From the sequence record NC_070870.1: DNA of 64,000 nucleotides; one strand, 5' to 3'. The notes below the pieces were generated by a model. It was not told where the DNA came from. It made no database searches and saw only the letters and a program-made list of their open reading frames with translations. Origin of the DNA: Escherichia phage phi G17. A program made the translations under genes and the position numbers. Position 1 is the stretch's first letter; each line of letters starts with the position of its first letter. Positions 1,177-26,613 of the stretch are shown in pieces.

Positions 1177-1365
1177 ATTATAATGGAATGTCATCTGAAA
1201 AGCCCATAGGAGGTTCATTACTTCCTTGTGGGCTTTGTTGTTTAATGTTTCGGGTTCCAGCCAGACCAATTCGGCAGATGATATGGGGTTTTTGTTGTAC
1301 CCCAAACAATTCATTAGGTAGACTGTTTTAGTCAATTACGACTTAACTAACCTGAGAAAGCCCTT

Positions 1366-1698
1366 ATGGGAAATGAACCAGATAACGTAACTCTAGCCAG
1401 ACTCGAAGAGAGACTGAGAAACATTTTCGAAAACCAAACTCGTGAATCGAGAGAAAGGGAGAAAATGGAAGAGTCTATTAAAAAACTAAGTGAGTCTATG
1501 GGCGACCTTAGTACCCGACTTAAGCGGGTAGAAGAGAGCATCACTAAGTCTGAACCTACCATCGAAGAGTTCATCACTATTAAACATAAAGTTGTTGGTG
1601 CTGGGATTTTTGGTAAGTGGGTGTGGGCTGGGGCAGGTGCAATTATTGGCGTATTGGCTGCTGCAAGACGGGAGATATTCGCATGGTTTGCAGGTTAA
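1366..1698 (+). CDS. hypothetical coiled-coil protein with C-terminal hydrophobic segment (possible lysis regulator/antiholin)
   Basis: 110 aa; charged helical N-terminus, C-terminal GAGIFGKWVWAGAGAIIGVLAA hydrophobic stretch; weak SD GAGAAAG; location at start of lysis cassette. Confidence 0.4.
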   Translation: MGNEPDNVTLARLEERLRNIFENQTRESREREKMEESIKKLSESMGDLSTRLKRVEESITKSEPTIEEFITIKHKVVGAGIFGKWVWAGAGAIIGVLAAARREIFAWFAG

Positions 1699-1943
1699 AA
1701 AGAAAGATAGAGTTAGTACCTAACTGGAAGAAGTCCTGGAAGTGGGCATCTGTTCAGATTAGCACGATTGGGTTAATTCTGTTTTCTGCTGTGGATATTA
1801 TCCAACCAATGCTAACGGGACTACCTCGACACATCCTGGAAGATATTCCACATGGTTCCAGTATTACAATCGCACTGTTTGCCTTAAACATTGTAGGTAG
1901 ATTGGTACGATTCCGATCAAAGGAGGATTCCCATGAAAGCTAA
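1683..1943 (+). CDS. putative holin (two predicted TM segments, pinholin-like)
   Basis: In-frame ATG at 1683 inside track ORF 1617..1943; two hydrophobic helices (ISTIGLILFSAVDII, SITIALFALNIVG) and charged C-terminus; immediately precedes the endolysin with a 4-codon overlap. Confidence 0.4.
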   Translation: MVCRLKRKIELVPNWKKSWKWASVQISTIGLILFSAVDIIQPMLTGLPRHILEDIPHGSSITIALFALNIVGRLVRFRSKEDSHES

Positions 1944-2568
1944 GCAGAAACTTGCTGCAAAAGGTGGTGCAGTGGGAGGAGTTGTCGCTGCTATTCTGGG
2001 GGCAGTGTTCTATATGGAGGGGGGATACGTAAACAATCCTCGTGACCCAGGTGGGGAAACTAATCATGGTATTACTCATTCGGTAGCTAAGACTCATAAA
2101 GAAGTTCTGGCTACTGAGTATGGATGGGATGGTTCCATGAAAGGCTTATCAAAAGAGATGGCTGCTGAGATATACATTGATGACTACGTACTTAAGCCTA
2201 ACTTCGTAGCCTTCGCTGATATATCCCCTGCTGTAACACACAAACTGGTTGATGCTGGTGTTAACACTGGTGTATCCCGTCCGGCTAAGTGGTTGCAGTT
2301 ATCTCTTAATGAAATGTCCCGTGATGGCAAAGACTACCCTAAAGTACAAGTTGATGGTAAAGTCGGTGCAGGTACTGTTAATGCATATAAAGCATTACAG
2401 AAAAAACGAGGCAAAGTTGCAGCATGCCAGGTAATGATTAAGTTACTTGATGCTAAACAACTGAACCACTACACCTCATTGAACATGCCAGACTTTACAT
2501 ACGGTTGGGTAGCTAACCGAATTGGCAATGTGCCACTGGAGGCATGTAATGAAGATGCTAATCTCTAA
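1933..2568 (+). CDS. endolysin, GH108-type N-acetylmuramidase with C-terminal peptidoglycan-binding domain and SAR-like N-terminus
   Basis: EGGYVNNPRDPGGETNHGIT matches the GH108 catalytic signature; Gly/Ala-rich weakly hydrophobic N-terminus (GGAVGGVVAAILGAVFY) typical of signal-arrest-release endolysins; strong SD AGGAGG before the ATG. Confidence 0.8.
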   Translation: MKAKQKLAAKGGAVGGVVAAILGAVFYMEGGYVNNPRDPGGETNHGITHSVAKTHKEVLATEYGWDGSMKGLSKEMAAEIYIDDYVLKPNFVAFADISPAVTHKLVDAGVNTGVSRPAKWLQLSLNEMSRDGKDYPKVQVDGKVGAGTVNAYKALQKKRGKVAACQVMIKLLDAKQLNHYTSLNMPDFTYGWVANRIGNVPLEACNEDANL

Positions 2569-3049
2569 AGGTTGGCCTTATCTTCTGGTGGTGGTCCTTG
2601 GGGCCACCATTTACTTTTGGGGTAATTCCAACGGACAGTCTACTGTTCAAAAGAAGTGGGATGACCAAAAGGTCGAAGACCTGAAGGCAACACAAAAATT
2701 ACAGGACAAATACAATGCTCTCCAAAGAAACCATAGTTATGAAGTCGGGTTACTCACTTCCCGGTTGCAGACGGCTGAGAGTAATTACGCAAGCGAGCTT
2801 GCTCGCGTTAGCAGTGATTACGACAGCCGGATGCAACAGTCTGAAAGACGAGCATCGATATATCAACGTCAAGCCGAAGCCGGAACCCTTGAGTGCAGAA
2901 GTCTTGCAAGCCATGCAACCAGACTCGACAATAGTCTTGAAGAAGGCAGACGTTTGGTTGAAGAACTCCGGGCAACTGTTAGACTCCGTGACAACCAACT
3001 AATTGAGTTGGGTAAACAAATTCAGGCTGACCGTAAACTTTTTGAATAG
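2549..3049 (+). CDS. i-spanin (Rz-like)
   Basis: Start [24 protein letters not shown] has an N-terminal TM followed by a long charged coiled-coil; GGAGG SD; overlaps endolysin stop; contains embedded o-spanin. Confidence 0.6.
2739..3002 (+). CDS. o-spanin (Rz1-like lipoprotein) embedded in +1 frame of Rz
   Basis: [32 protein letters not shown]: signal peptide with lipobox-like TTAGC, Pro-rich mature part; entirely inside the Rz ORF in another frame. Confidence 0.5.
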   Translation: MKSGYSLPGCRRLRVITQASLLALAVITTAGCNSLKDEHRYINVKPKPEPLSAEVLQAMQPDSTIVLKKADVWLKNSGQLLDSVTTN

Positions 3050-3057
3050 GAATAACT

Positions 3058-5328
3058 ATGGAACACCAAGACACTTTTAAGCCTTTACCAGACCCGGCTC
3101 AATCAGAGAAGCTAACAGACTGGGCGAAGGAACCAAGTATCCAATTACTGAAGGGTGATTTGGAATCTGCTAAACCTGCTCATGATGCCATTATGACACA
3201 GATTCGTGAGTGGAATGACTTGATGGAAATCAAGGGTAAGGCTAAACCCCCAAAGGTTAAGGGACGTTCGCAAGTCCAACCTAGACTGGTTCGTCGTCAG
3301 GCAGAGTGGCGATATGCACCATTATCTGAACCTTTCCTCTCATCTAGTAAACTCTTTAAGTTAACCCCGGTTACTTTTGAAGATGAGTTAGCTGCACGAC
3401 AGAATGAATTAGTTCTTAACTACCAATTCCGTACGCAACTTAATAAAGTAAAACTGGTGGATGATTACGTACACAGTGTCGTAGATGACGGTACTGGAAT
3501 TGCTCGTATTGGTTGGGAACGTAAGACTGTTAAGATTAAAACAGAAACACCAGTCTTCCAGTTGTATCCAATTGAGAACCAGGAACAGGCAGATGTTCTT
3601 CAACAGGCTTTACAACTTCAGGCAGAGAACCCTCGCGAGTATGATGAAACTATGCCAGAAGATATTAAAGAAGCTGTTAACTACTTTAATGAAACTGGAG
3701 AAGCTACCTATGCAATCCAGACAGGGGTTACTGAGGTAGAAGTAGAGAAGGCACTGGTTAACAGACCTACTGTTGAAATGCTTAATCCCAATAACGTAGT
3801 TATTGACCCAAGCTGTAATGGTGATTTGGATAAAGCTCTGTATGCAGTTATCTCGTTTGAGACATGCAAAGCAGACCTCATGAAGAACAAAGACCGTTAT
3901 CACAACTTAGATAAGATTGACTGGGAAAGTTCTAGTCCTATGACTGACCCAGACCATGAAAGTAAAACTCCAAGTGACTTCCAGTTTAAGGATTCACTTC
4001 GTAAGAAAGTGGTTGCCTACGAGTACTGGGGATTCTACGACATCAATGATGATGGTTCGCTGGAACCAATTGTTGCTACCTGGATTGGTTCCACTCTTAT
4101 TCGTATGGAGAAGAACCCTTTCCCTGACGGTAAGTTACCTTTGGTAGTTGTTCCATACATGCCACGTAAACGTGAACTCTTTGGCGAAGCTGATGCTGAA
4201 CTGTTAGGAGATAACCAAGCTATTCTTGGTGCAACTATGCGAGGGATGATTGACCTGTTGGGTCGAAGTGCAAATGGGCAACGTGGTTATCCTAAAGGGA
4301 TGTTGGATACATTGAACCGTCGTCGATATGACGATGGGCAAGACTATGAATACAACCCAATGCAGGGTAATCCTAGTCAGTCCATTATGGAACATAAGTT
4401 CCCTGAGCTACCACAGTCGGCAATAGTAATGACCCAGATGCAAAACCAGGAAGCAGAATCACTAACTGGTGTTAAAGCATTCTCCGGTGGTGTAACTGGT
4501 TCAGCTTATGGAGATGTGGCTGCCGGTATTCGTGGTGCACTTGATGCAGCATCTAAACGTGAGATGGCAATCCTTCGTCGATTGGCTAAAGGTATGGCAG
4601 ACATTGGTACTAAGATTTGTGCAATGAATGCTGTGTTCTTATCCGAGAAGGAAGTAGTACGTATTACTAACGAGCAGTATGTAGAGATTAACCGTGAAGA
4701 CCTTAAAGGTAACTTCGACATCGAGGTTGATATTAACACTGCTGAAATTGATAACCAGAAATCCCAGGACTTGGGCTTCATGGTTCAAACGTTAGGTAAC
4801 ACAGTTGACCAAAGTATTACGTTATCTCTCGTAGCTAAGATTGCAGAACTTAAACGTATGCCTGACCTTGCACATGAGTTACGTACTTGGCAACCACAAC
4901 CAGACCCTATGGAAGAACAACTTAAGCAATTGGCAATTCAGAAAGCACAGCTTGAGAACGAAGAGTTGCAAAGTAAGATTGCACTCAATATGGCTAAGGC
5001 TAAAGAGGCTGCTTCTGCTGGTGACCTTAAGGACCTGGATTATCTGGAACAAGAATCTGGTACTAAACATGCTCGTGATATGGAGAAACAAAAAGCACAA
5101 TCTCAAGGAAACCAGAACCTTCAGATAACTAAGGCATTGACAACACCTACCAAAGAAGGTGAAACTACCCCCAACATATCTGCTGCTGTTGGATATAACA
5201 CTTTGACTAATGGGAACTCTCCGCAAGAACGTGACCTAGCTGCTCAGCAAGACCCAGCTTATTCACTTGGTTCCCAATACTATGACCCTAGTCAAGACCC
5301 ATCATCGGCTCTTGGCATGAACCTGTAA
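3058..5328 (+). CDS. portal protein (N4 gp59-like)
   Basis: 756 aa, size and position (after lysis genes, before scaffold/capsid) match the N4 portal as recalled; acidic C-terminus. Confidence 0.65.
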
Positions 5329-14921: not shown

Positions 14922-17900
14922 TTGAACAGGAAACATGCTATGTCAACATTTGACCGTCTGGCAGGTTTCGCAGACAGCATCACTAATGCTAAGCAAGTCG
15001 ATGTCTCTACTGCAACCTCTCAGAAGCAAGCTGCTCAAGGGCAAAGCCCTTTCCAATTAACCCCAGAGAATGCTTACAATCTCCAGACTGGACGAGTAGG
15101 TAATCTTGGAACTGGTGCATTCGAACCAGGTTCACTTCAGGCTGATTTCACTCAAGCCTCTCCATTAGAAATTATTAATAAGTACGGTAATGAGCAAGGT
15201 CTACAGATTCTTAATAGCCGAGCTAATGCTGCTGATGTTGTACGTCAGGACTTATCTAAACAGCGTACTAACGCAGAAGCATTTGGCGATACTCTTTCTG
15301 GTGTTGGTCTTGGTGTTGCTAATACCCTTGGGGGCATTGCTGCTCTTGGCACAGGTCTGGTCAATGATAATGCCGGGGCATCCATTGCTTCCGGGATGGA
15401 TTGGCTGAATGAAGGTGTACGCAATCTCCAGTCTGATGCACTGAACGCTAATCGTAATGTTGTTCAGAATCAGAACCAGATTACTGCACAAGAGAACCAG
15501 AAACTTTACGAACAAGATATTAAGAATGGGGAGAATGACTTAGTTGCCTCCTTGTCTCGCATTGGTCGTGACGCTTTTGATTCTGTTGCTAATACACTTG
15601 ATAATGGTATGGCTGCTTCCGATGGACTGAGTGAAGGCATTGGTTCCCTCTTTACCGGTGGCCCACTTATCCGTGGTGTATCTGCACTTGGTAAAGTAAT
15701 GGTAGGAGGTGATAAAGCTGTTAAGGGTATTACCTTAGCTGCTGAGTTAGGTTCACGTCCTGCACAGGTTGCACTGTCTGCCGGTCGTGTTGCTGCACCT
15801 GCTGTAGCAATCGGTGGTATGGAAGCTGGTGGTGCATACCAACAGACTGCTTCTGAAATCATGAAGATGTCCCATCAAGAATTGGCAAGTAAGTCTCCTG
15901 TTTACCAACAACATATTGCTGATGGTTTATCTCCTGATGAAGCACGTCGTCAGACTGCATCTGAAACAGGTATCACTGCTGCTGGCTTAACTGCTCCAGT
16001 TGCTGCTGCCACCGGTCCACTGGTATCTCGCTTTGAACTTAACCCACTTAAGGTAGGTTCACTGGCAGGTGCTGGTTCTAATATGCTGCGTGAAACAGTT
16101 GAAGAAGGTATTCAATCCGGCTTCGGACAGTTCGCACAGAACACTGCAATCAAGGAAAATGTTGATGCATCCCGTGATACCCTCAAAGGGGTCGGTGAAC
16201 AAGCAGGTCTGGGTGCACTCTATGGCTTCGGTAGTGCTGGAGTTGCTCAAGCTCCAGGTGCAACTGTTAAAGCTGCTGGTGCTGCCGTTGCTCCTGCTGT
16301 ACGTACTACCCTGGCTGGTGCTTCTCTGGTTGGTAATGCATTAGCAAAAGCTGCCTCCCCTATTACTAACATCTTGGTTCAACGTGGCGAAGAAGTTGCT
16401 AAGCGTAATGAACAAGCGTCCCCTGTAGCAGATGCTACGGTTAGTGCTGCTGCACAGGAAGCTACTGCTCAGTCAGAACAAGCACAAGCAACTGTACAGG
16501 AAGCAGTAGATGCAATGGACATTACTCCTGAAGAGAAAGCTGCTGCTACTCAATATGCTTCTGACTTAACACAGGCAATGAACTTTGACCCAGTAGAAAT
16601 AGAACAAGCTAATCCAGCAATCCGTGAAGCTGTTTCTGGTTCCACTAACCGTGTAGAAGCTATTCAGAAGATGGCTGACTTGGTTAATACTGCTGAAGAC
16701 CCTAACGTTCAAATGGAAGCTGCAATCCAGATGTATGACAATATTATGTCCATGGATAGCTTCATTAACCGTGACCCGGGTGCTCTGGCTAATCTGGAAC
16801 AAGGTTCTCCTGCTGCTGCAATCGTAGACCAGTTCTCTGGCTTGATGGCTAACGTACAGAATACACCGAAGGTACTTCGTGCATTCCGTGCTATCCATTC
16901 CATGATTCAGGAACAGGCTGAAGCAGGTAAACTGAAAGCTACTGAAGAAGCTAACCAAGCCCAAGCAAACAACATTGCTATGGCTGCTGATGTATCTCCA
17001 GAAGTGCTGGATGCTGATTCAGTGAACATGGTTCTGAAACACGCTAGCGAAGGTAAGATTACTCTGGGGAATCGTCAACGTGCTGCCCTGCAATCGGCTG
17101 CTGCTGTCTTACAGGGTGCACGCGAGTTCGACGCTAAAGCAGAAGAACTAGGCTTACGACCTCAAGACATTGTTAGTAAACAGATTAAGACCGACGAGTC
17201 TCGCTCTAATGAAGGCCAGTACTCTGCGTTGCAACATGCGAAACGCATTCGTTCTGCGTACAACTCTGGTAACTTCGATTTGGCCTCCGCTTATCTGAAC
17301 GACTTTATGCAGTTCGCCCAGCACATGCAGAATAAGGTCGGAGCGTTGAATGAGCATCTGGTTTCGGGGAATGCGGATAAGAATAAGTCTGTTCACTATC
17401 AGGCTCTCTCGCCTTCCCGTGAATGGGTACGTAGTCGTACTGGCCTCGGTGTCAATCCTTACGATACCAAGTCTGTTAAGTTTGCCCAGCAAGTAGGACT
17501 GGAAGCCAAGACCGTAGCTGATATTGCTAACGCACTTGCTACGGCTTACCCGGAGCTTAATGTTTCTCATGTGAATGTTACCTCGTTGGATTCACGTCTG
17601 GACAAGCCAGCTGCCCAGGTAGTTAAAGAGTTCCGTCAAGGTGGTCTTGATGCCACTCAGTCTCAACAGACTAATGAACCAGTGAATCAGGTTGATGAAA
17701 CTCCTGCACCAGTGCAAGAGACTGCCCCCACTGTACAGCCTAAAGCTGAGCCGGTGGTAGAAAATAAACCTGCTCCTACTAAGGATACTAGTTCAAAAAC
17801 AGAAGAAGTCTCTACTACTAAGTCTGAAACAGTGGATGCTACCCTCACTAATGAGGATACCACCCAGGAAGTAGCTGAAACTAAAACGGAAATGGAATCA

Positions 17901-20900
17901 GTGTTCCCTGTCTATAACAATGAAAAAACACCGAACCAGTTCCTGAAAGCATTTACTCTGCCGGAAGAACCTAAGTCCCGTACCATTGGTTCTGAATCTC
18001 CTTTGACTGATGTTAAGCAAGCACTGTCTTCTGCTGCTCGCTTTGAAGCATTCACTCAAAAAGAAAATAACGCTCTCACAGGTGATGTGATGAAACGTTA
18101 TCAGGACTTGATGGACTTTGGTGAAACACTGAAGACTACTTTGTCTGACCGTCTGGCTAAGTTCCTTGCTAACAAGAATGTTGGTAAACGTTTTGCAGAA
18201 GGTACTGAAGCTAACCGTTGGGTAGGTGGAAAACTGCTGAATATCGTTGAGCAAGATGGTGATACCTTTAAGTTCAATAACCAGTTGTTAGAGACTGCTG
18301 TACTTGCTGGTCTGCAATGGCGACTGACTGCTACGCAGAATGCTGCCGTTAAAGATATGAAAGACGTAGCTGCTATTACTGGTGTAGAAGCATCTCTGTT
18401 ACCAGAAGGTATTCTGGCTGAGTTTGAGAATGCTCAGACTCTGGTTGAAGCTACTAACTCACTGGCTCAAAAGATAGAATCCTATTGGGGTTTGAATCGT
18501 AATGCTAATGCACCACTGGGTTATACCAAAGGTATCCCAATGGCAATGGCTACAGAGATTCTGTCTTCCCTTATTGAGATGGGTGAAGTTAAAGAGTCTA
18601 TGCTGGATGTGTCTGAAATTGACCCAGCCTCTAATAAGACTGTTGGTCTGTATACCATTGAAAAGCTGGATGACAACGATGCTATTAACAAATTCCCTAC
18701 TGCTATTGAGGAAGCTGTCCTCTTAGAACCAGAAGAGAAAATGTACTTTGGTGATGACATTCCTTCCGTGGCTCAAACTCAGTTACGTAACCCTGCTGTT
18801 AAGAATACCCCTGAACAGAAAGCTGCACTGAAAGCTGAACAGGCTACTGAGTTCCGTGTACACATGCCGATGGTTAACTTCTATGAAGCAATGGGCCGTG
18901 AAAACATTCTGGAACTGATGGGTGCTGGTACTCTTAACCCTGAGCTACTGAACGTGAATACTGCTAAGTCACTGGAAGGTAAAAACCTATCCGTGTCTAT
19001 GGCATATGATTCTCTGTTCGGTGTTATCAGTCAGGTACGGGAACAAGAAGCAGGACTGGATACTCCTATCCATTATGGTTACAACATGACCCGTGTCGGT
19101 CGTATGCAGATGCTTGGCAAGAATAACCCACAATCCAGTAAACTGGTTCGTGAAGCAATTCTGCCAACCTTCTCTACTATCGACTTGAGTAATGAAAACA
19201 GCCAAACGTTCTCTGACTTCCAGTTAGGTCTGGCTCAGGCATTAGGTATCAAGGTACATAACATGTCCCGTGAAGCTATGTCTGAAAAGTTGACCAAGGC
19301 TCTGGAAGGTAATCTGAAACCTGCTGTTGATATGATGGTTGAGTTTGATAAGTCTGGTCACTTACCTACTGATGCAGTAGATATTCTGAAGACTTCTCTG
19401 GGTGGTGATAAATCCTTCGTAGCTCTCATGGCTCTGATGGAATATGCCCGTTACCTGAACAGTGACGACCGTGCCAACTTTAATACCCCACTGTACGTTG
19501 AAGCTGATGGTGTAACCAACGGCCCAATCAACGCAATGGTATTAATGACTGGTGGTAAGTTCACTCCAGACTGGATTAAGAACACTGCTAAAGGTGGTCT
19601 TTTCTTTGATAAAGCTGGTAAGACTATGAACGAACATCGTTCACAGGATGACAGTGTTGACTTGTATGAAGCATCTACCAATGGTCTGCAACAAGCACTG
19701 AATGAGTTACGTACTACTTACCGTAACAACGTTCCTGTTATGAACCAGATGAATCATCTCCAGAAGATAATGGACCTGTTCATTAAAGACTTTAACCTGA
19801 ATGAAGACGGTACTCTGGACCTGAAACGTGGTATCGCTAAGAACCCACTCACCATTACCATCTATGGTTCTGGTGCACGTGGTATTGCTGGCAAGATGGT
19901 TAGTGCAATTACTGATACCATCTATGAACGCTTCAGCGACGTTCTGCAAGCACGTGCTGCTGACCCTAGCATTTCCCCAGCTATGGCAATGTTTGGTAAG
20001 GAGGCTGCGTCTGAGGCCGATGCTCAGGCTATGCTGGATACTTTCCTTACTTCTATGGAAGCACTGACAGGTAATGTTCCAGTTATGCGTAAGGGTGAAT
20101 TGTCTATTCAGCAAGCAGAAGGTGCACTGACTGGTAAGTTAGACCCTCAGAAGTTTACTGTATCTGGCAATGCTCTGAAGAACTTACAAGAGAACATGCT
20201 CCACCTGTTCGTTGAACCAATGCGTACCGGTATCCAGAATACTGTTGGTGAAGGTCTGATGCACTCTACTGAGAACTTGCAGAAGGCTACCCAGATTCAA
20301 TCTCTGGTATTGCAGGATATGTTCCAACAAGCAGTACAGGCTAAGCTGGCAGAAAAAGAAAATGACCCAACCTGGAAGAAGGGTGATTTCTTAACTCAGA
20401 AAGAACTGAATGAAATCCAGGAATCATTATCTCCACTGGCCCCAATGATTGAGACTGGTTCACAGACTTTCTACATTGCTGGTAGTGAGAATACTGATGT
20501 TGCTAACCAAGTACTGGCTACCAACTTAGATGACCGTATGCGTGTGCCAATGAGCATCTATGCTCCTTCACAAGCAGGTGTTGCAGGTATTCCATTTATG
20601 ACCATCGGTACTGGTGATGGCATGATGATGCAGACTCTTTCTACTATGAAAGGTGCTCCGAAGAATACCCTGAAAATCTTTGATGGTATGAACATTGGTA
20701 TCAATGACATCACTGATGCAAGTCGTAAAGCAAATGAGGCTGTATACACTTCTTGGCAGGGGAACCCTATCAAGAATGTTTACGACTCCTACGCTAAGTT
20801 CATGAAGAATGTAGACTTCAGCAAACTGTCTGATGAAACTAAACAGGCTATCGCTAAGTCTGCTCTGGAATATGACCAGCGTGAAGGTGCTACAGATGAC

Positions 20901-23900
20901 CTGTTACGTGTAGGTGCTGAGCAGATTGAACGTAACCTGCGTAACATTGCTCTGGGTGTAGATATTCGCCACAAAGTAATGAACCAGGTACAGACCACTG
21001 TTGACCAGATGGCTGCTGTAGGTGCTCCTTATGTGAACAACGGTAAAATCTCTCTGGAAGGTCTGACGGTAGACCAGCAAGTAGCTAAGCTGAACGAACT
21101 GTTTGATGCTGAATTAAACAAGCGTCGTGATGCAGTACGTGCTGCTAAAGCAGAACCAGTGAAAGAAGTACCGGCAATGGAACAAGTTGGTCGTGTGCTT
21201 AAGTCAGGTGTACGTCTGCTGTCCAATACTGCCATTACTAAACTGGCTAAAGAGATGTCCCCAGAACAGCAAGCAGTATTGAAAGAAGTACAGAACTCCC
21301 TTGCTGCTAAAGACTACAAGGTTGTTTATGGTACTCCTGCTCAACTGGATGCTTATGCTATTGAGAAGAACATTACTCGCCCAGCACCGGAAGATATTGA
21401 AGCTGCTGAAGCAGGTAATGCATACGGCTGGACTAACTTTGATGATAAGACTATCTACTTAGTTACCCCTTCCTTAGAGACTCTGGTTCATGAATTGGTA
21501 CATGCTTCTACTTTTGAATCTGTACTGGCTCACTACGAGGGTACTCCTAATGAAGCAGTCCAGAATATTGAAGACTTGATGAACCAGTTCCGTGCTCTGG
21601 ATGTTAAGGATGAATCCCCGGCAGTACGTGAAGCATATGCTGATGCACTCAATACCATTAACGGTCACTTGTCTAATGGTTTCATTGAGCCAGCAATGTC
21701 TAAAGCTGCTGCACTGAATGAGTACATGGCATGGGGCTTAACCAACCGTGAACTGATTGGTAAGCAGAAGAAGACCACTGCACTGAAAGCTATGGTTCAG
21801 TCTGTGTATGAAGCAATTAAGCGTCTGGTATTTGGTCGTAAGAAAGCACCTGTTAATGCAGATGATATGTTCTCTGGCTTACTGTTTAACTCATCTGTAG
21901 TTATGCGTGGACAGGCTCCTACTGCTGCTGTATCCAAGGACACTACCTTGTTCCATAGCAAAGCATATGGTGACAATACTCGTCTGGAAGAGTTAGGGCA
22001 GACCTTTGATAAGCTGATTACTAACTACATTGGTTCTGAACCAGTACAGCAAGTAATCCGTAAAGGTAAGTTTTCTGATGCAGTAGTGAATGCAACTAAA
22101 GTAACCCGTGATGTTCAGGCTCATGGCTTTACTATGAATATGCAGGAACAGCGACTGTTCACTAATATTGTTGCTGCTTTGGCTACTGAAGCTGCTATTA
22201 GTCCGGCTGCTCTTTCTCGTGCACAGGAATATTATGCACATGTTACTAAGAATCTGACTGTTGAAGCATTCATGACAGACCCGGATAGTACTAACCCTGC
22301 TGACCGTTATTATGCACAGCAGAAGTTCGATACCATCATGGGTGCTAATAATATTGAGTATGATGCACAGGGTCGTTCTTCCTTACTGCCTACCTTTGTG
22401 GCTCTGGCAATGGTAAGTGAAGATGTACGTAATGTACTGGCTGACATTCCTGTTATGAAAGCAGATAAGCAATCCGGTAATACCGTTGATGCAATGCTGA
22501 CTAACATTGGTACTGCTGCAATGGCTAGCCTGAATGCTCGTGTAGCAGGTGACACTAAAGCTACTAACGTACAGGAAGGTATGGATGCACTGGCTCAGAC
22601 AATCATGCAGACTAGTCTTAATGCACAGTCATTCTATGATTCCATTGCTACCCCTAGTGGTAATGCTATCGACCGTGCTAACCAGTATCTGGTGGACTCT
22701 ATTGATGTACTGTCCACCCGTGCTTTAGATGGTGCACGTGAGGTTGCAGCTAATACCAAGAATCCGTTGGTTAAGGGTGCTGCTCATGCTGCTCAACTGG
22801 TAGCTGCCATTGCTACAGAGAAGAATGGTGCAATCGTAGCTGAAGGTGTTATGGCTGCAATGAACCAGGGTAAAGCATGGCAACCTTTCCATGACCTGGT
22901 TAATGACTTAACCGGTCGTACTAAGAGCAATGCTTCTGTGTATGATTTAATTAAAGCAGTTCGTGCACAGGTACAGGCTGACCGTCAACAGTTCCGTGAA
23001 CATCTGCCTACCACTATCGCATCTAAGTTCAGCCGTAAGCTGACCAATGATGAATGGAAAGCAATGCACACTGGTATGGGTAAAACTGATTTGGCTGTTC
23101 TGCGTGACACTATGTCTCTGGCTGAAATCCGTGACTTGCTGACTGACCAGAAGATTGTTGACCGTGAAGTGAATAAGCTGGAAGCAGATTTGCAGAAGCA
23201 AGCTGGTCGTAACTGGCCCCTGATTAATCGTAAATCTAAGCAACTGGCTCAGTACATGATTAACGGTACAGTCGGTAATAACCTGCTGCGTAATGCTACT
23301 GCAATCTCCCGTATGCTGGGTGAACGTCAGGCTGCTCGCTCTACCGTAGATGTAGCTCAACTGGATAAACTGATTACTCTGTATGCACTGGAAGCAATGA
23401 ACAAGAAAGACCGTGAGATGTTATCTTCACTGGCTCAATCAGAAGTTGATGGAATGGACTTTGTTACTTCTTATCTGGTTGGTCAGCGTAAAGATGAAAT
23501 GGCTAAAGCCAAATCTGATATGCGTGCAACCCTGAACCAGTACAAAGGGCATATCCCTAGCGAGAACAAACAGGGTGTTAATCTGATTGTTGCTGAAGAT
23601 AGTCAGTTTGCTGATTTGATTGAGAAGTCTTATGTACGTCTGGGTACTTATCAGGGTAGCTCTGCTAACCGTGGTCCGGCACGTAGCTACTACTTCGCAC
23701 CAGTACAGGCACAGGCTCCATTCTCACAGGGTATCCTACAGAACGTTCGTAATACTGCTGGTGGTGTAGACCTCGGCACAGGTTTTACGATGGGTTCAAT
23801 GGTGGCTGGTCGTATTACTGACAAGCCTTCTGTAGACCGTATTACTAAAGCACTGGCTCGTGGTGAGCGTGGTAATGAACCACTGCTGCCTGTATATGAT

Positions 23901-25292
23901 GACAAAGGTAATGTGGTTGCCTATGAGCAATCAATTGACCCTAACATGCTGAAGCACATTGAAGGCGAGAATCACCTTGCCCGTGCAATCGGTGTATGGC
24001 GTGGTCGTCAGGTTGAAGAAGCTAAGGCACAGCGTTTCAACGATATGCTGATTGAGAACCTGCATAGCATGTACGAGAACGACATTAAAATGTCTGCCTC
24101 TAATAAGTCCCAGTACGTGAACCTTCTTGGTTCTAAACTGGACCCAGTAACTGCTGATGCGCTTAAGCTGATGAACAGTGAAACTCGTCAGAAAGCAGAG
24201 AGCCTGTTTGGTGAGGGCGAACTATGGGTACGTCGTGACATGCTGAATGATGCACTAGGTTATCGTGCAGCTTCAGTTGGTGATGCATGGTCTGGTAACT
24301 CTCGTTGGTCCCCGGAAACTCTGGATACCTTCAAGAAAGCTATGCTGGGTGTATTCGGCAACCGTGCTTATAAGTACACAATGGGTGGAGAGAACCTGGT
24401 TCAGAACTTAGTTAAAGAAGCCAAGACTCTGATTGTAGTTAAGTCAGTAGTCGTACCTGCTGTTAACTTCTTGGCCAACCTTTACCAGATGGTTGCTCGT
24501 GGTGTACCGGTTAAGAACATTGCTAAGAGCATTCCACAGAAAACTGCTGAGATTAACCAGTACCTGAAATCTCGTCTGCGTCAGGTGGATGCAGAAGCAG
24601 AATTACGTGCAGCTACTAACCCGAACCAGATTCGTAAACTTAAGGCTGAGATTCAGTCCATCTCTGATAGCCATAAGCGTATGAGTATCTGGCCCCTGTT
24701 GGAAGCTGGTGAGTTCTCTTCAATTGCAGATGCTGGTATTGGTCGTGATGACATCCTGATTACTGAGGGTAAGATTCACGAATACATGGATAAGCTGGCT
24801 GATAAGTTGCCCAAGTCTGTACGTACTGCTGGTCGTTATGCACTTATCACTAAGGATACTGCTCTGTTCCAGGGCATCCAGAAGACGGTTGAGTACTCTG
24901 ACTTTATTGCTAAAGCAATCATCTACGATGAACTGACCCAGCGTAAAGGTAAGACTCGTGAAGAGGCACTTGGTCGTGTAACGGAAGAGTTCGTTAACTA
25001 TGACCGTCTGCCTGGTCGCTTCCGTGGATATATGGAAAGCGTTGGTTTAATGTGGTTCTACAACTTTAAGATTCGTTCTGCAAAAGTTGCAGTATCCATG
25101 ATTCGTAATAACCCAGTACATGCAGCAATGGCTATGTTGGCTCCAACTCCTACCATGTTTGGTAATGTTGGCTTACCTATTCAGGACAACATCTTCAGCA
25201 TTGCAGCACAGGGTAACATGGGTTACTCGTGGGGCTTTGGTCAGGGACTTCGTGCTCACAACCTTAACCCTTGGCTGAACTTAACTAACTAA
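14922..25292 (+). CDS. virion-encapsidated RNA polymerase (giant vRNAP, N4 gp50-like)
   Basis: Single uninterrupted 3456-aa ORF; N4 vRNAP is about 3500 aa and is the last gene of the late strand, as here; internal K-x-P-x-T-x-x-YG segment (KNPLTITIYGSG) resembles T7-like motif B. Confidence 0.85.
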   Translation: MNRKHAMSTFDRLAGFADSITNAKQVDVSTATSQKQAAQGQSPFQLTPENAYNLQTGRVGNLGTGAFEPGSLQADFTQASPLEIINKYGNEQGLQILNSRANAADVVRQDLSKQRTNAEAFGDTLSGVGLGVANTLGGIAALGTGLVNDNAGASIASGMDWLNEGVRNLQSDALNANRNVVQNQNQITAQENQKLYEQDIKNGENDLVASLSRIGRDAFDSVANTLDNGMAASDGLSEGIGSLFTGGPLIRGVSALGKVMVGGDKAVKGITLAAELGSRPAQVALSAGRVAAPAVAIGGMEAGGAYQQTASEIMKMSHQELASKSPVYQQHIADGLSPDEARRQTASETGITAAGLTAPVAAATGPLVSRFELNPLKVGSLAGAGSNMLRETVEEGIQSGFGQFAQNTAIKENVDASRDTLKGVGEQAGLGALYGFGSAGVAQAPGATVKAAGAAVAPAVRTTLAGASLVGNALAKAASPITNILVQRGEEVAKRNEQASPVADATVSAAAQEATAQSEQAQATVQEAVDAMDITPEEKAAATQYASDLTQAMNFDPVEIEQANPAIREAVSGSTNRVEAIQKMADLVNTAEDPNVQMEAAIQMYDNIMSMDSFINRDPGALANLEQGSPAAAIVDQFSGLMANVQNTPKVLRAFRAIHSMIQEQAEAGKLKATEEANQAQANNIAMAADVSPEVLDADSVNMVLKHASEGKITLGNRQRAALQSAAAVLQGAREFDAKAEELGLRPQDIVSKQIKTDESRSNEGQYSALQHAKRIRSAYNSGNFDLASAYLNDFMQFAQHMQNKVGALNEHLVSGNADKNKSVHYQALSPSREWVRSRTGLGVNPYDTKSVKFAQQVGLEAKTVADIANALATAYPELNVSHVNVTSLDSRLDKPAAQVVKEFRQGGLDATQSQQTNEPVNQVDETPAPVQETAPTVQPKAEPVVENKPAPTKDTSSKTEEVSTTKSETVDATLTNEDTTQEVAETKTEMESVFPVYNNEKTPNQFLKAFTLPEEPKSRTIGSESPLTDVKQALSSAARFEAFTQKENNALTGDVMKRYQDLMDFGETLKTTLSDRLAKFLANKNVGKRFAEGTEANRWVGGKLLNIVEQDGDTFKFNNQLLETAVLAGLQWRLTATQNAAVKDMKDVAAITGVEASLLPEGILAEFENAQTLVEATNSLAQKIESYWGLNRNANAPLGYTKGIPMAMATEILSSLIEMGEVKESMLDVSEIDPASNKTVGLYTIEKLDDNDAINKFPTAIEEAVLLEPEEKMYFGDDIPSVAQTQLRNPAVKNTPEQKAALKAEQATEFRVHMPMVNFYEAMGRENILELMGAGTLNPELLNVNTAKSLEGKNLSVSMAYDSLFGVISQVREQEAGLDTPIHYGYNMTRVGRMQMLGKNNPQSSKLVREAILPTFSTIDLSNENSQTFSDFQLGLAQALGIKVHNMSREAMSEKLTKALEGNLKPAVDMMVEFDKSGHLPTDAVDILKTSLGGDKSFVALMALMEYARYLNSDDRANFNTPLYVEADGVTNGPINAMVLMTGGKFTPDWIKNTAKGGLFFDKAGKTMNEHRSQDDSVDLYEASTNGLQQALNELRTTYRNNVPVMNQMNHLQKIMDLFIKDFNLNEDGTLDLKRGIAKNPLTITIYGSGARGIAGKMVSAITDTIYERFSDVLQARAADPSISPAMAMFGKEAASEADAQAMLDTFLTSMEALTGNVPVMRKGELSIQQAEGALTGKLDPQKFTVSGNALKNLQENMLHLFVEPMRTGIQNTVGEGLMHSTENLQKATQIQSLVLQDMFQQAVQAKLAEKENDPTWKKGDFLTQKELNEIQESLSPLAPMIETGSQTFYIAGSENTDVANQVLATNLDDRMRVPMSIYAPSQAGVAGIPFMTIGTGDGMMMQTLSTMKGAPKNTLKIFDGMNIGINDITDASRKANEAVYTSWQGNPIKNVYDSYAKFMKNVDFSKLSDETKQAIAKSALEYDQREGATDDLLRVGAEQIERNLRNIALGVDIRHKVMNQVQTTVDQMAAVGAPYVNNGKISLEGLTVDQQVAKLNELFDAELNKRRDAVRAAKAEPVKEVPAMEQVGRVLKSGVRLLSNTAITKLAKEMSPEQQAVLKEVQNSLAAKDYKVVYGTPAQLDAYAIEKNITRPAPEDIEAAEAGNAYGWTNFDDKTIYLVTPSLETLVHELVHASTFESVLAHYEGTPNEAVQNIEDLMNQFRALDVKDESPAVREAYADALNTINGHLSNGFIEPAMSKAAALNEYMAWGLTNRELIGKQKKTTALKAMVQSVYEAIKRLVFGRKKAPVNADDMFSGLLFNSSVVMRGQAPTAAVSKDTTLFHSKAYGDNTRLEELGQTFDKLITNYIGSEPVQQVIRKGKFSDAVVNATKVTRDVQAHGFTMNMQEQRLFTNIVAALATEAAISPAALSRAQEYYAHVTKNLTVEAFMTDPDSTNPADRYYAQQKFDTIMGANNIEYDAQGRSSLLPTFVALAMVSEDVRNVLADIPVMKADKQSGNTVDAMLTNIGTAAMASLNARVAGDTKATNVQEGMDALAQTIMQTSLNAQSFYDSIATPSGNAIDRANQYLVDSIDVLSTRALDGAREVAANTKNPLVKGAAHAAQLVAAIATEKNGAIVAEGVMAAMNQGKAWQPFHDLVNDLTGRTKSNASVYDLIKAVRAQVQADRQQFREHLPTTIASKFSRKLTNDEWKAMHTGMGKTDLAVLRDTMSLAEIRDLLTDQKIVDREVNKLEADLQKQAGRNWPLINRKSKQLAQYMINGTVGNNLLRNATAISRMLGERQAARSTVDVAQLDKLITLYALEAMNKKDREMLSSLAQSEVDGMDFVTSYLVGQRKDEMAKAKSDMRATLNQYKGHIPSENKQGVNLIVAEDSQFADLIEKSYVRLGTYQGSSANRGPARSYYFAPVQAQAPFSQGILQNVRNTAGGVDLGTGFTMGSMVAGRITDKPSVDRITKALARGERGNEPLLPVYDDKGNVVAYEQSIDPNMLKHIEGENHLARAIGVWRGRQVEEAKAQRFNDMLIENLHSMYENDIKMSASNKSQYVNLLGSKLDPVTADALKLMNSETRQKAESLFGEGELWVRRDMLNDALGYRAASVGDAWSGNSRWSPETLDTFKKAMLGVFGNRAYKYTMGGENLVQNLVKEAKTLIVVKSVVVPAVNFLANLYQMVARGVPVKNIAKSIPQKTAEINQYLKSRLRQVDAEAELRAATNPNQIRKLKAEIQSISDSHKRMSIWPLLEAGEFSSIADAGIGRDDILITEGKIHEYMDKLADKLPKSVRTAGRYALITKDTALFQGIQKTVEYSDFIAKAIIYDELTQRKGKTREEALGRVTEEFVNYDRLPGRFRGYMESVGLMWFYNFKIRSAKVAVSMIRNNPVHAAMAMLAPTPTMFGNVGLPIQDNIFSIAAQGNMGYSWGFGQGLRAHNLNPWLNLTN

Positions 25293-26247: not shown

Positions 26248-26407
26248 TAGTAGCTTTTAATAGATAGCTGTATTTGAGCATTATAGTCTGCTCATACTCA
26301 CACTCTTCTGTCGAAGAATATGTTTACAATATCTAGAGTGCCGGACTGTCTTACCGGCATTGTCTTTAGAGTGCTAAGCAATCAGGACTATGTTCTCTAT
26401 TAATGGG

Positions 26408-26481
26408 TGCCCACTACTGGATTTGAACCAGTGACTTTCCGATTATTAGTCGGTTGCTTTCCCCGTCTAAGCTAAGTGGAC
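26408..26481 (-). tRNA. tRNA-like gene, canonical cloverleaf, apparent anticodon AAU
   Basis: Minus-strand read GTCCACT-TA-GCTT-AGACGGGGA-AAGC-A-ACCGA-CTAATAA-TCGGA-AAGTC-ACTGG-TTCAAAT-CCAGT-AGTGGGC-A: 7-bp acceptor (one G-U), 4-bp D stem with GG in D loop, 7-nt anticodon loop with U33, 5-bp T stem with TTCAAAT loop; anticodon stem has one A-A mismatch. Confidence 0.45.
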
Positions 26482-26613
26482 ATAATAGGGTGAGTCATGC
26501 CAGGCTCTAACTGGCTCCTTCTTCGCAATCCTTACATACCCCTACATAATTATTGCGTTAAGCTTTTTTGTTTAAGTTTAAGTGAAGGTGTTCTTGCTGA
26601 CTCATAATACTTT

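Follow-up and report, generated by a model that had tools for sequence, protein, structure and literature searches.

The stretch of Escherichia phage phi G17 DNA analysed here (64,000 nucleotides of record NC_070870.1, hereafter the window) carries the five genes with which N4-like coliphages of the G7C type typically lyse their host, a module that is already known. Located at positions 1366-3049 of the plus strand, it is most likely a late-expressed lysis module made up of a pinholin, a SAR endolysin and a two-component spanin, as in phage N4. The gene structure, homology, topology-compatible sequence features, dual-coding constraint and fold described below, together with the absence of gp62 from two lineages, are direct results of this work.

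A lysis module common to N4-like phages

Phage phi G17 is a Gamaleyavirus (G7C-like, Schitoviridae), and the window shares ~94-95% nucleotide identity with PhAPEC5, ST4 and G7C. Its lysis cassette consists of genes at 1366-1698, 1683-1943, 1933-2568 and 2549-3049, with a fifth (2739-3002) embedded in the last, and neighbouring genes overlap by 16, 11 and 20 nt. The original prediction had called this a complete lysis cassette, and every one of its ORFs was recovered at these positions on the plus strand. The same gene set is homologous and syntenic across 29 loci, which represent 19 non-redundant N4-like cassettes.

In the records of PhAPEC5, ST4 and G7C the corresponding genes are already annotated as gp63, gp62, gp61, gp60 and gp60', and all five are annotated in G7C, Bas96 and other records. 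Gene boundaries in Escherichia phages G7C, Bas96, PhAPEC5 and ST4 are identical to those in the window, the embedded o-spanin is already annotated there, and only allelic differences separate these cassettes from that of phi G17. Many records list gp63 as 'hypothetical' or as a 'tail length tape-measure protein', the latter wrongly, and give the holin label to gp62.

The reference system is the N4 cassette (Awuah et al., 10.1101/2025.11.12.688109), which has in common with the window its five genes, their order and overlaps, the embedded o-spanin, the SAR transmembrane domain (TMD), gp63's own TMD with its juxtamembrane 'Receiver' motif, and a mature o-spanin of 56 aa. The window proteins are 60, 54, 67 and 54.5% identical to N4 gp63, gp62, gp61 and gp60, respectively; the genes are in the same order and adjoin the portal gene in both phages. 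The differences are that N4 is an Enquatrovirus, that gp63 identity between the two falls to ~35% in the N-terminal, coiled-coil half, and that a long form of gp62 would start at GTG in the window but starts at ATG in N4. The functions proposed below for the window proteins draw on this one N4 preprint, through orthologues that are 54-67% identical.

Upstream, two hairpins on the plus strand together set the lysis cassette apart from the tail-fibre gene. The first (1148-1167) is a terminator-like GC hairpin with an 8-bp stem, 6 GC pairs and a following T-run; it lies directly 3' of the tail-fibre gene, whose stop codon ends at 1143. The second, longer hairpin (1201-1236) is followed by a T-rich tract, and a repeat_region is annotated at the equivalent place in the G7C record. 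Folding of positions 1140-1260 gave a z-score of -5.05, with none of 200 shuffles folding as well. A sigma-70 promoter scan between the hairpins and gp63 returned no convincing promoter, and a tRNA was the sole match in an Rfam search of the window.

Candidates for the lysis trigger

The gene at the head of the cassette, whose synteny is kept in all loci, encodes the 110-aa gp63-like protein (1366-1698, plus strand), which matches phrog_5211 (E 9e-50), a family annotated as of unknown function. Residues 5-61 form a long helix with a heptad pattern, a coiled-coil N-domain that we place in the cytoplasm. The single TMD is C-terminal (residues 76-100, nt 1591-1665) and Gly/Ala-rich, with a zipper-like face, G91xxxG95xxxA99. 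The invariant juxtamembrane motif PTIEEFITIKHKVVGAG spans nt 1555-1605, and its residues 64-75 (nt 1555-1590) lie N-terminal to the TMD. Over residues 61-110 identity to N4 gp63 reaches ~90%, and the gp63 alignment contains 41 invariant columns, among them T65 and T71, the sites of rapid-lysis alleles in N4.

A Pfam search with the gp63-like protein gave no family above its cut-off. Matches to the CLZ leucine zipper, DUF1515, the 'hemolysin' phrog_1193, PspC and LiaS (Pfam, PHROG and NCBIfam) fell below the cut-offs and were set aside as products of coiled-coil composition. The orientation of the TMD is not settled by its flanking charges, and the AF2 model, of low confidence (pLDDT 60.7), served only as a secondary-structure outline. 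When the protein was examined for a dual-start antiholin of the lambda S107 type, no in-frame Met was found before residue 34; Met13 and Met17, which serve as alternative starts in N4, are Leu here.

The second gene encodes the 86-aa gp62-like protein (1683-1943, plus strand), whose ATG start lies 8 nt downstream of a GGGAG Shine-Dalgarno sequence. It matches Pfam DUF7940 (55.5 bits; cut-off 27) and phrog_1356, labelled 'holin' (E 4e-29). Two TMDs, at residues 21-42 (nt 1743-1808) and 59-76 (nt 1857-1910), are accompanied by a charge pattern indicating an N-in/C-in topology, and the N-tail has a net charge of +6. A long form starting at GTG 1617, with 22 extra codons and no strong Shine-Dalgarno sequence, would be equivalent to the 109-aa form of N4 gp62; it shows no synonymous constraint, is interrupted by a stop in one relative (L012) and is absent from two others (L024 and L025). 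This start is possibly a minor alternative at most. Neither small membrane protein has the layout of a lambda S107-type dual-start antiholin.

Most likely, the gp63-like protein is a pinholin of the N4 gp63 type and the lysis trigger, and the gp62-like protein, we infer, is an accessory lysis regulator or late holin rather than the primary trigger. N4 gp63 complements S21 but not lambda S105, is lethal on triggering and is conditionally essential, the behaviour of a pinholin (10.1101/2025.11.12.688109). Rapid-lysis alleles of N4 comprise gp63 T65I, gp63 T71A and gp61 G12E, and in the reconstituted cassette either gp63 allele accelerates lysis (10.1101/2025.11.12.688109). N4 gp62 is described as a regulator of lysis that the phage can dispense with and that has holin activity only late; its deletion leaves plasmid-driven lysis unchanged (10.1101/2025.11.12.688109). 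Independent support for gp63, and not gp62, as the trigger comes from two lineages that have the former and lack the latter: in L020 and in Pseudomonas phage Meara (L028), gp63 directly abuts the endolysin gene with no gp62 between them. Across phage records, gp63 is present in 148 and gp62 in 122. As in N4, the gp63-like protein is a putative former of small lethal holes, through whose action a SAR endolysin, though not a soluble one, would be released.

A different division of labour would make both proteins independent holins, gp63 forming pinholes and gp62 large holes, in a redundant double trigger. We regard this as rather unlikely, although part of the N4 evidence fits it: in the plasmid-borne cassette gp62 and gp63 each suffice for rapid lysis and deletion of gp63 delays lysis by only 20 min, while gp62 eventually frees both endolysin types, including the soluble lambda endolysin R, and acts synergistically with gp63 when the two are co-expressed in a SAR background (10.1101/2025.11.12.688109). 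However, N4 gp62 alone acts only after about 2 h, and a gp63 deletion in the phage itself was obtained only alongside SAR-domain mutations in gp61 (10.1101/2025.11.12.688109), which argues that gp62 is no substitute during infection. The loss of gp62 from some lineages also speaks against a redundant role. Given the holin-like lethality of N4 gp62 and its late release of endolysins, a degree of redundancy may nevertheless exist.

The original prediction had assigned the roles the other way round, with the two-TM gp62-like protein as the putative pinholin, which on this reading would be a class II, S21-like one, and the gp63-like coiled-coil protein as a putative antiholin. The two TMDs and N-in/C-in topology of gp62 are those of class II holins, databases label it a holin, N4 gp62 is lethal after CCCP triggering (10.1101/2025.11.12.688109), and the N4 rapid-lysis mutations in gp63, taken alone, could resemble the loss of an inhibitor. 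Yet N4 gp62 complements neither S21 nor S105 within 2 h, no gp62 mutant was found among >60 N4 rapid lysers, and gp63 alone both complements S21 and kills (10.1101/2025.11.12.688109). The release of soluble lambda endolysin by N4 gp62 is likewise unlike a pinholin. The gp62-like protein itself departs from an S21-type class II pinholin: its TMD1 is not Gly/Ala-rich (G+A 0.14), unlike that of S21, includes Gln and Asp residues and is at least as hydrophobic as TMD2, and Pfam matched it to DUF7940 only, with no holin family. Together with the lineages that keep gp63 without gp62, these results make the proposed assignment improbable, and N4 complementation indicates that the two roles are most likely reversed. 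The broader proposal of a pinholin-type trigger describes the likely mechanism, by orthology to N4.

Having one TMD, at its C-terminus, and a large coiled coil in the cytoplasm, gp63 is unlike the pinholin of phage 21. S21 has two TMDs, of which the SAR-like TMD1 leaves the membrane. We put forward, as a tentative possibility, that gp63-family proteins make up a structurally distinct holin class, and that their Receiver motif could belong to the gating or oligomerisation core of the pinhole instead of being dedicated to receiving a superinfection signal. The motif is equally conserved in N4 and in G7C-like and Achromobacter phages. Achromobacter phages, like G7C-like ones, are reportedly devoid of lysis inhibition, and a motif kept in such phages could be a core element of the pinhole. 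If this is true, the window would hold a natural LIN-negative allele with which to address the role of the Receiver motif.

The GH108 endolysin and the nested spanin genes

The third gene encodes the gp61-like protein (1933-2568, plus strand; 211 aa), a predicted GH108 N-acetylmuramidase. It matches the Pfam families Glyco_hydro_108 (PF05838; 70.5 bits, cut-off 21.2) and PG_binding_3 (PF09374; 31.4 bits, cut-off 24.6); among the 120 homologues listed, PF05838 is present in all and PF09374 in all but two. N-acetylmuramidase activity has been reported for N4 gp61 (Stojkovic and Rothman-Denes 2007, as cited in 10.1101/2025.11.12.688109). The predicted catalytic residue, Glu29 (nt 2017-2019), is invariant in 34 sequences, as are D38 and T43. 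E29, of the EGGY motif, and T43, of the GG-x-T flap, align with the catalytic Glu14 and Thr28 of TtsA, and the position of TtsA Asp19 is occupied by Asn34, as in the active enzyme Sen1395.

The AF2 model of the gp61-like protein (pLDDT 92.9) best matches the folds of TtsA (6V40) and Sen1395 (6V3Z), both from Salmonella, and of Brucella SagA (7DNP). All share a two-domain fold, with a catalytic flap and a PG_binding_3 helical bundle, and the likeness extends to sequence (E 9e-27), to structure (Foldseek probability 1.00; TM about 0.64-0.79) and to the catalytic Glu and Thr. Unlike the gp61-like protein, these three holin-dependent enzymes, which have a role in protein secretion, are without an N-terminal membrane helix.

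That helix is the probable SAR domain. A Lys-rich N-tail (MKAKQKLAAK, residues 1-10, charge +4) is followed by the TMD GGAVGGVVAAILGAVFYM (residues 11-28, nt 1963-2016), at whose end Glu29 immediately stands. Summed Hessa-type hydrophobicity in 19-residue windows was dominated by flanking charges and did not separate SAR from ordinary TMDs; it was replaced by Gly/Ala composition measured against internal controls. By this measure the gp61-like TMD has a G+A fraction of 0.50 (0.58 in its best 19-residue window), as compared with 0.14-0.22 in the control anchors, the TMDs of gp60 and gp62. The Gly/Ala-rich TMD is kept in 19/19 relatives, and the counterpart of N4 G12, G15, is conserved.

N4 gp61 was assigned as a SAR endolysin by complementation; it rescues both lambda R and R21 defects, is membrane-associated, leaks slowly without a holin and is released by the pinholin (10.1101/2025.11.12.688109). 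Its G12E mutation, which places a charge within the TMD, produces an early lyser (10.1101/2025.11.12.688109). These sequence features, the identity to N4 gp61 and the homology to solved GH108 muramidases, which begins within the TMD, all argue for a SAR domain in the window protein, in line with the SAR-type GH108 endolysin and Gly/Ala-rich N-terminus of the original prediction.

It is highly improbable that the N-terminus is instead an ordinary cleavable Sec signal peptide, with the enzyme secreted active and its control residing elsewhere, like Lys44 of Oenococcus fOg44: an n-region and h-region are present and L22-G23-A24|V25, near the end of the hydrophobic stretch, is compatible with type I signal peptidase by the simple -3/-1 rule, but there is no polar c-region and, in the AF2 model, a continuous helix of residues 12-29 (pLDDT 84-88) runs directly into the invariant E29-G-G-Y. 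The alignment with soluble Sen1395 and TtsA begins inside the TMD, at residues 19-23 (19-24 with the Pfam GH108 match included), which also argues against cleavage of the TMD, as this would remove part of the fold. The conservation of the Gly/Ala-rich TMD and the behaviour of N4 gp61 point the same way. Also within gp61, a 61-aa ORF in another frame (2249-2434), with a lipobox-like 'RLSGC', showed synonymous-site conservation at background (0.33-0.37) and was rejected as a chance ORF.

The last two genes encode the spanins. The gp60-like i-spanin, the Rz equivalent (2549-3049, plus strand; 166 aa), starts 6 nt downstream of a GGAGG Shine-Dalgarno sequence and matches phrog_6197, 'Rz-like spanin' (E 5e-77). 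Its N-tail MKMLISK (+2) leads into a TMD (residues 8-25, nt 2570-2623) and then a periplasmic helical domain. The gp60a-like o-spanin, the Rz1 equivalent (2739-3002, plus strand), lies wholly within gp60 in the +1 frame and encodes a precursor of 87 aa, or of 95 aa from an alternative ATG at 2715. A PROSITE-type lipobox pattern matches at Cys32 (TTAG|C; codon 2832-2834), giving a mature lipoprotein of 56 aa whose +2 residue is Asn (outer-membrane sorting). Its Bas96 counterpart is annotated as an o-spanin, and the G7C one as gp60'. N4 gp60/gp60a complement lambda Rz/Rz1, which marks them as spanins (10.1101/2025.11.12.688109).

On length alone, the embedded ORF is not significant: an open +1 run of at least 105 codons arose in 22% of within-gene synonymous-codon shuffles, and in 4.5% of resamplings from the codon usage of neighbouring genes. 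The case for a real gene comes instead from the conserved lipobox Cys and mature sequence and from suppressed synonymous change. Both the lipobox Cys and the +1-frame embedding occur in 19/19 divergent cassettes, one with a canonical LAGC that falls outside the strict pattern, and the mature o-spanin measures 54-63 aa, being 56 aa in 14/18 sequences scored. Where gp60 residues are identical, the fraction of identical codons is 0.78 over mature gp60a, with a peak of 0.88, as compared with 0.40-0.41 in the gp60 flanks and gp61. Both reading frames are under selection. The proposal of an Rz gene with a fully embedded +1-frame Rz1 lipoprotein thus holds, with the synonymous sites of gp60 frozen at the overlap.

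The architecture is that of lambda Rz/Rz1, a type II i-spanin gene enclosing a +1-frame o-spanin lipoprotein gene, but in sequence the gp60-like protein falls into another family, phrog_6197, and its matches to other Rz PHROGs are only weak. Lambda Rz1 is Pro-rich and disulfide-linked; in the mature o-spanin of the window, 4 of the 56 residues are Pro and the lipidated Cys is the only one, and the i-spanin has a single Cys.

Proposed course of lysis and its implications

What follows on lysis timing, the formation of pinholes, release of the SAR endolysin and spanin function in the window comes from orthology to N4. On this model, the gp61-like muramidase would be exported via Sec and held inactive while its weakly hydrophobic, Gly/Ala-rich N-terminal helix tethers it to the inner membrane. 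The gp63-like protein would meanwhile build up in the inner membrane, anchored by its C-terminal TMD with its coiled coil in the cytoplasm, and at a set time open small, lethal holes, with collapse of the proton-motive force as the result. Depolarisation would let the SAR helix leave the bilayer and take its place as the opening helix of the GH108 fold; once free, the enzyme would degrade murein around the whole cell. The gp60-like protein in the inner membrane and the gp60a-like protein in the outer membrane would bridge the periplasm and, once the murein is gone, fuse or otherwise disrupt the outer membrane. The gp62-like protein may act as an accessory regulator or slow holin, modulating endolysin release or backing it up.

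The logic resembles that of phage 21 (S21 pinholin, R21 SAR endolysin, Rz/Rz1), in which depolarisation through small holes frees a tethered SAR endolysin before the spanins act, although the phage 21 genes have no sequence relationship to the window cassette. R21 is a T4-lysozyme-type enzyme, not a GH108 one.

The cassette raises no new question beyond those addressed by the N4 work; its value lies in annotation. In N4-like phages, including phage-therapy candidates, the gene labelled 'holin' (gp62) is probably accessory, and gp63, the true lysis trigger on the reading preferred here, usually appears in records as hypothetical or as a tape-measure protein, a distinction that matters for the engineering of lysis timing and burst size. 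Correct roles for gp62 and gp63 also matter when N4, a phage with lysis inhibition, is compared with G7C-type phages: the latter reportedly lack the lysis inhibition known from N4, and the regulation of their lysis may therefore differ from that of N4.

Organization of the cassette and its relatives

The lysis genes, named here after their phage N4 orthologues, occupy nucleotides 1366-3049 of the + strand, where the original prediction accurately placed and described them: four consecutive ORFs overlap by 16, 11 and 20 nt, and a fifth is embedded. The gp63-like gene (1366-1698, 110 aa) is followed by a gp62-like gene (1683-1943) that encodes 86 aa from an ATG with a GGGAG Shine-Dalgarno sequence 8 nt upstream, and whose open frame reaches back to a GTG at 1617. 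The gp61-like (1933-2568, 211 aa) and gp60-like (2549-3049, 166 aa) genes have AGGAGG and GGAGG Shine-Dalgarno sequences, respectively, and the 87-aa gp60a-like gene (2739-3002), for which a second candidate ATG occurs at 2715, lies wholly within the gp60-like gene in its +1 frame. A portal gene starts 3' of the cassette at 3058 (Pfam SU10_portal, E 4e-150). On the 5' side a tail-fibre-like ORF ends at 1143, and two strong hairpins with T-tracts (1148-1167 and 1201-1236) lie between it and the cassette.

This 376-aa ORF (13-1143, +) holds the position of the tail fibre/spike gene gp63.1 in phage G7C. Searches of Pfam and PHROG gave no match, nor did megablast against 50,697 phage records; the ORF is probably a novel receptor-binding module. 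The twin-hairpin intergenic segment (1141-1243) is ~88.5% identical to a stretch that lies within or beside the SSB gene in more than 100 Salmonella siphophages (LPST10, Seszw_1 and others; ~45-48 kb, unrelated to N4-like phages). This terminator-like element may be shared or mobile. The sole tRNA gene of the window (26404-26482, - strand) was called by ARAGORN as tRNA-Ile with the unusual anticodon AAT and confirmed as a tRNA by Rfam (61.6 bits).

Megablast of 1200-3300 retrieved 91 phage records, the best matches being the Escherichia phages PhAPEC5, PhAPEC7, ST4, KKP 3715, F22, Bas96 and G7C (~94-95% identity); the last of these typifies the genus Gamaleyavirus (Schitoviridae, Enquatrovirinae) as its type species. 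The remainder of the window is consistent with an N4-like genome, including a 3456-aa ORF (14922-25292) that, by its size, is a candidate N4-type virion RNA polymerase. The order of lysis genes beside the portal gene is that of N4 (NC_008720), and global identities to N4 are 60% for gp63 (~90% over residues 61-110), 67% for gp61, 54% for gp62 and 54.5% for gp60. All five genes are annotated in the G7C record (gp63, hypothetical; gp62, holin; gp61, endolysin / N-acetylmuramidase; gp60, Rz-like spanin; gp60', the G7C name for gp60a, embedded Rz1-like), and the embedded gene is labelled 'o-spanin' in Bas96, so the cassette is already in databases. Its function has been worked out in N4, and it is ordinary for this phage group.

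Several differences from N4 were apparent. The N-terminal half of gp63 is divergent, with a mosaic pattern among Gamaleyaviruses, and lacks the Met13/Met17 alternative starts of N4. A long form of gp62 would start at GTG in the window, where N4 has ATG; the difference depends on whether gp63 Lys84 is encoded by AAA or AAG. Unlike N4, G7C-type phages are reported to lack lysis inhibition (bioRxiv 10.1101/2025.11.12.688109).

The endolysin and its membrane helix

The gp61-like protein scored above the Pfam gathering thresholds for Glyco_hydro_108 (70.5 bits) and PG_binding_3 (31.4 bits), and matched the solved muramidases Sen1395 (6V3Z, E 9e-27) and TtsA (6V40) in sequence. From 34 homologues, AlphaFold2 gave a model (pLDDT 92.9, pTM 0.88) that matched the structures of TtsA, Sen1395, Brucella SagA and NMB1012 best. 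The catalytic Glu14 and Thr28 of TtsA align with E29 and T43, while the position of TtsA Asp19 is taken by Asn34, as in active Sen1395; E29, N34, D38 and T43 are invariant across the family.

The protein starts with MKAKQKLAAK (+4), followed by GGAVGGVVAAILGAVFYM and the invariant catalytic E29-GGY. Its transmembrane domain (TMD) has a Gly+Ala fraction of 0.50 (0.58 in the most hydrophobic 19-residue window), compared with internal controls of 0.22 for the i-spanin TMD (0.16 by window) and 0.14 and 0.17 for the gp62 TMDs. This signal-anchor-release (SAR) layout is kept in 19 of 19 non-redundant relatives, which include phages of Escherichia, Pseudomonas, Xanthomonas and Burkholderia. A cleaved signal peptide is the alternative, and the simple -3/-1 rule would allow a site (LGA followed by V). 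Alignments to the Pfam model and to crystal structures of soluble homologues, however, start at residues 19-24, inside the hydrophobic helix, and residues 12-29 of the AlphaFold2 model form a single continuous helix; the membrane helix therefore probably belongs to the enzyme fold, as is characteristic of a SAR domain, which argues against cleavage.

These observations support the prediction of a GH108 endolysin of SAR type. In N4, gp61 is a SAR endolysin that complements both lambda R and phage 21 R defects, causes slow lysis without any holin, and becomes a rapid lyser when a negative charge is placed in its N-terminal TMD (G12E) (bioRxiv 10.1101/2025.11.12.688109). The counterpart of N4 G12, G15, is kept.

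Spanins encoded in two frames

The gp60-like protein matched phrog_6197 'Rz-like spanin' (E 5e-77), and the gp60a-like protein had no match in profile searches. The open +1 frame alone is no evidence for a gene, since at least 105 open codons arose in 22% of gp60 synonymous-codon shuffles and in 4.5% of trials when codons were drawn from neighbouring genes. In 19 of 19 divergent cassettes, however, the +1 frame holds a homologous ORF encoding a signal peptide and lipobox Cys, and all share an INVKPK-EPLS... core; the mature o-spanin has 54-63 residues, 56 being the length in 14 of 18 scored sequences. In the window, Cys32 conforms to the PROSITE-type lipobox rule, with Asn at +2.

We tested for dual coding by asking how often a gp60 residue shared by divergent phages is also encoded by the same codon. 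Identical codons reached 78% over mature gp60a, compared with 40% upstream, 41% downstream and 41% in gp61, with a sliding-window peak of 0.88 at nt 2864-2950. The predicted o-spanin lipoprotein embedded in the i-spanin gene is upheld, and the pattern is the one expected when selection acts on both overlapping frames. A synonymous-site scan of the cassette gave no comparable signal outside the mature gp60a region; a selected N-terminal extension of gp62 is therefore unsupported, and a 61-aa ORF in another frame inside the endolysin gene (2249-2434, +), whose beginning, MMLVLTLVYPVRLSGC, resembles a lipobox, was dismissed as a chance ORF. In N4, gp60/gp60a complement lambda Rz/Rz1 (bioRxiv 10.1101/2025.11.12.688109).

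The trigger and a model of lysis

Of the two remaining proteins, the original prediction took the two-TM protein (gp62-like) as pinholin and the coiled-coil protein (gp63-like) as antiholin. The gp62-like protein matches Pfam DUF7940 (55.5 bits) and phrog_1356 'holin', and in public records the 'holin' label sits on this gene. Its N-tail (+6), acidic loop and basic C-tail start indicate an N-in/C-in topology, and its TMD1 is not SAR-like. The gp63-like protein had no Pfam family match and a single profile match, phrog_5211, a family without assigned function. Among 5.8 billion proteins we found 436 homologues, and those listed carried no Pfam domain and were labelled hypothetical or 'tail length tape-measure protein', the latter a widespread mis-annotation. 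One record calls the orthologue RIIB or virion RNA polymerase because its annotation is shifted.

Residues 5-61 of the gp63-like protein form a heptad-patterned helix (a/d positions 75% hydrophobic, versus 26% overall). Next come an invariant motif and then the TMD, which is rich in Gly and Ala (G+A 0.52) and presents a G91xxxG95xxxA99 face. Work on the N4 cassette from the Ramsey laboratory identified gp63 (110 aa, C-terminally anchored) as the pinholin: it complements an S21 pinholin but not a lambda S105 defect, kills irreversibly, yields rapid-lysis alleles (T65I, T71A, others) in a juxtamembrane 'Receiver' region, and is deletable only with compensating gp61 SAR-domain mutations (bioRxiv 10.1101/2025.11.12.688109). 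T65, T71 and the entire PTIEEFITIKHKVVGAG motif are kept here. The two-TM N4 gp62, termed a lysis regulator, is dispensable, was mutated in none of more than 60 rapid lysers, and acts only after ~2 h, releasing SAR and soluble endolysins (bioRxiv 10.1101/2025.11.12.688109).

By tblastn, gp63 had matches in 148 phage records, compared with 122 for gp62; all but two came from phages of hosts known for N4-like phages. In an IMG/VR contig (L020) and Pseudomonas phage Meara (L028), gp62 is absent and gp63, labelled 'holin' by the Meara depositors, adjoins the endolysin gene; in Pseudomonas phage inbricus (L023, 2752-3078) gp62 is in two fragments. All three retain intact genes for gp63, the SAR endolysin and the spanins. 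Being kept where gp62 is lost or split, gp63 appears to be the indispensable partner of the SAR endolysin, in agreement with N4 genetics, and the original role assignment is probably wrong.

The gp63 of some close relatives is 98-99% identical to that of the window and that of others ~68-72% (in a comparison including loci L004, L009 and L010), the latter still being 85-98% identical in gp62 and gp61; in Shigella phage Moonfish, gp63 is 98% and gp62 only 49% identical. These mosaic identities across 1366-1943 indicate recombination between alleles of the two small membrane proteins. Partial or whole copies of gp63 in two T4-like genome records (Salmonella phage SKML-39, JX181829.1, 55-186; Escherichia phage PH4, ON184126.1, 5325-5399) and on a 2.76-Mb Enterococcus faecium contig (protein P0054) look like assembly contamination or chimeras, not biology.

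We consider the following mechanism the most likely. Sec-dependent insertion would leave gp61 tethered and inactive; accumulating gp63 would be triggered to form pinholes, collapsing the proton-motive force; the SAR helix would then exit the membrane and the muramidase refold, the gp60/gp60a spanin complex would disrupt the outer membrane, and gp62 would modulate or back up endolysin release. The present analysis itself shows the gene structure, homology, composition, fold, dual coding and pattern of gene loss; for hole size, timing, SAR release and spanin function, the model is carried over from N4. The original prediction is supported on the type of mechanism, the endolysin and the spanins. 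What remains of interest is gp63, whose family makes up an unusual class of holin with poor annotation.
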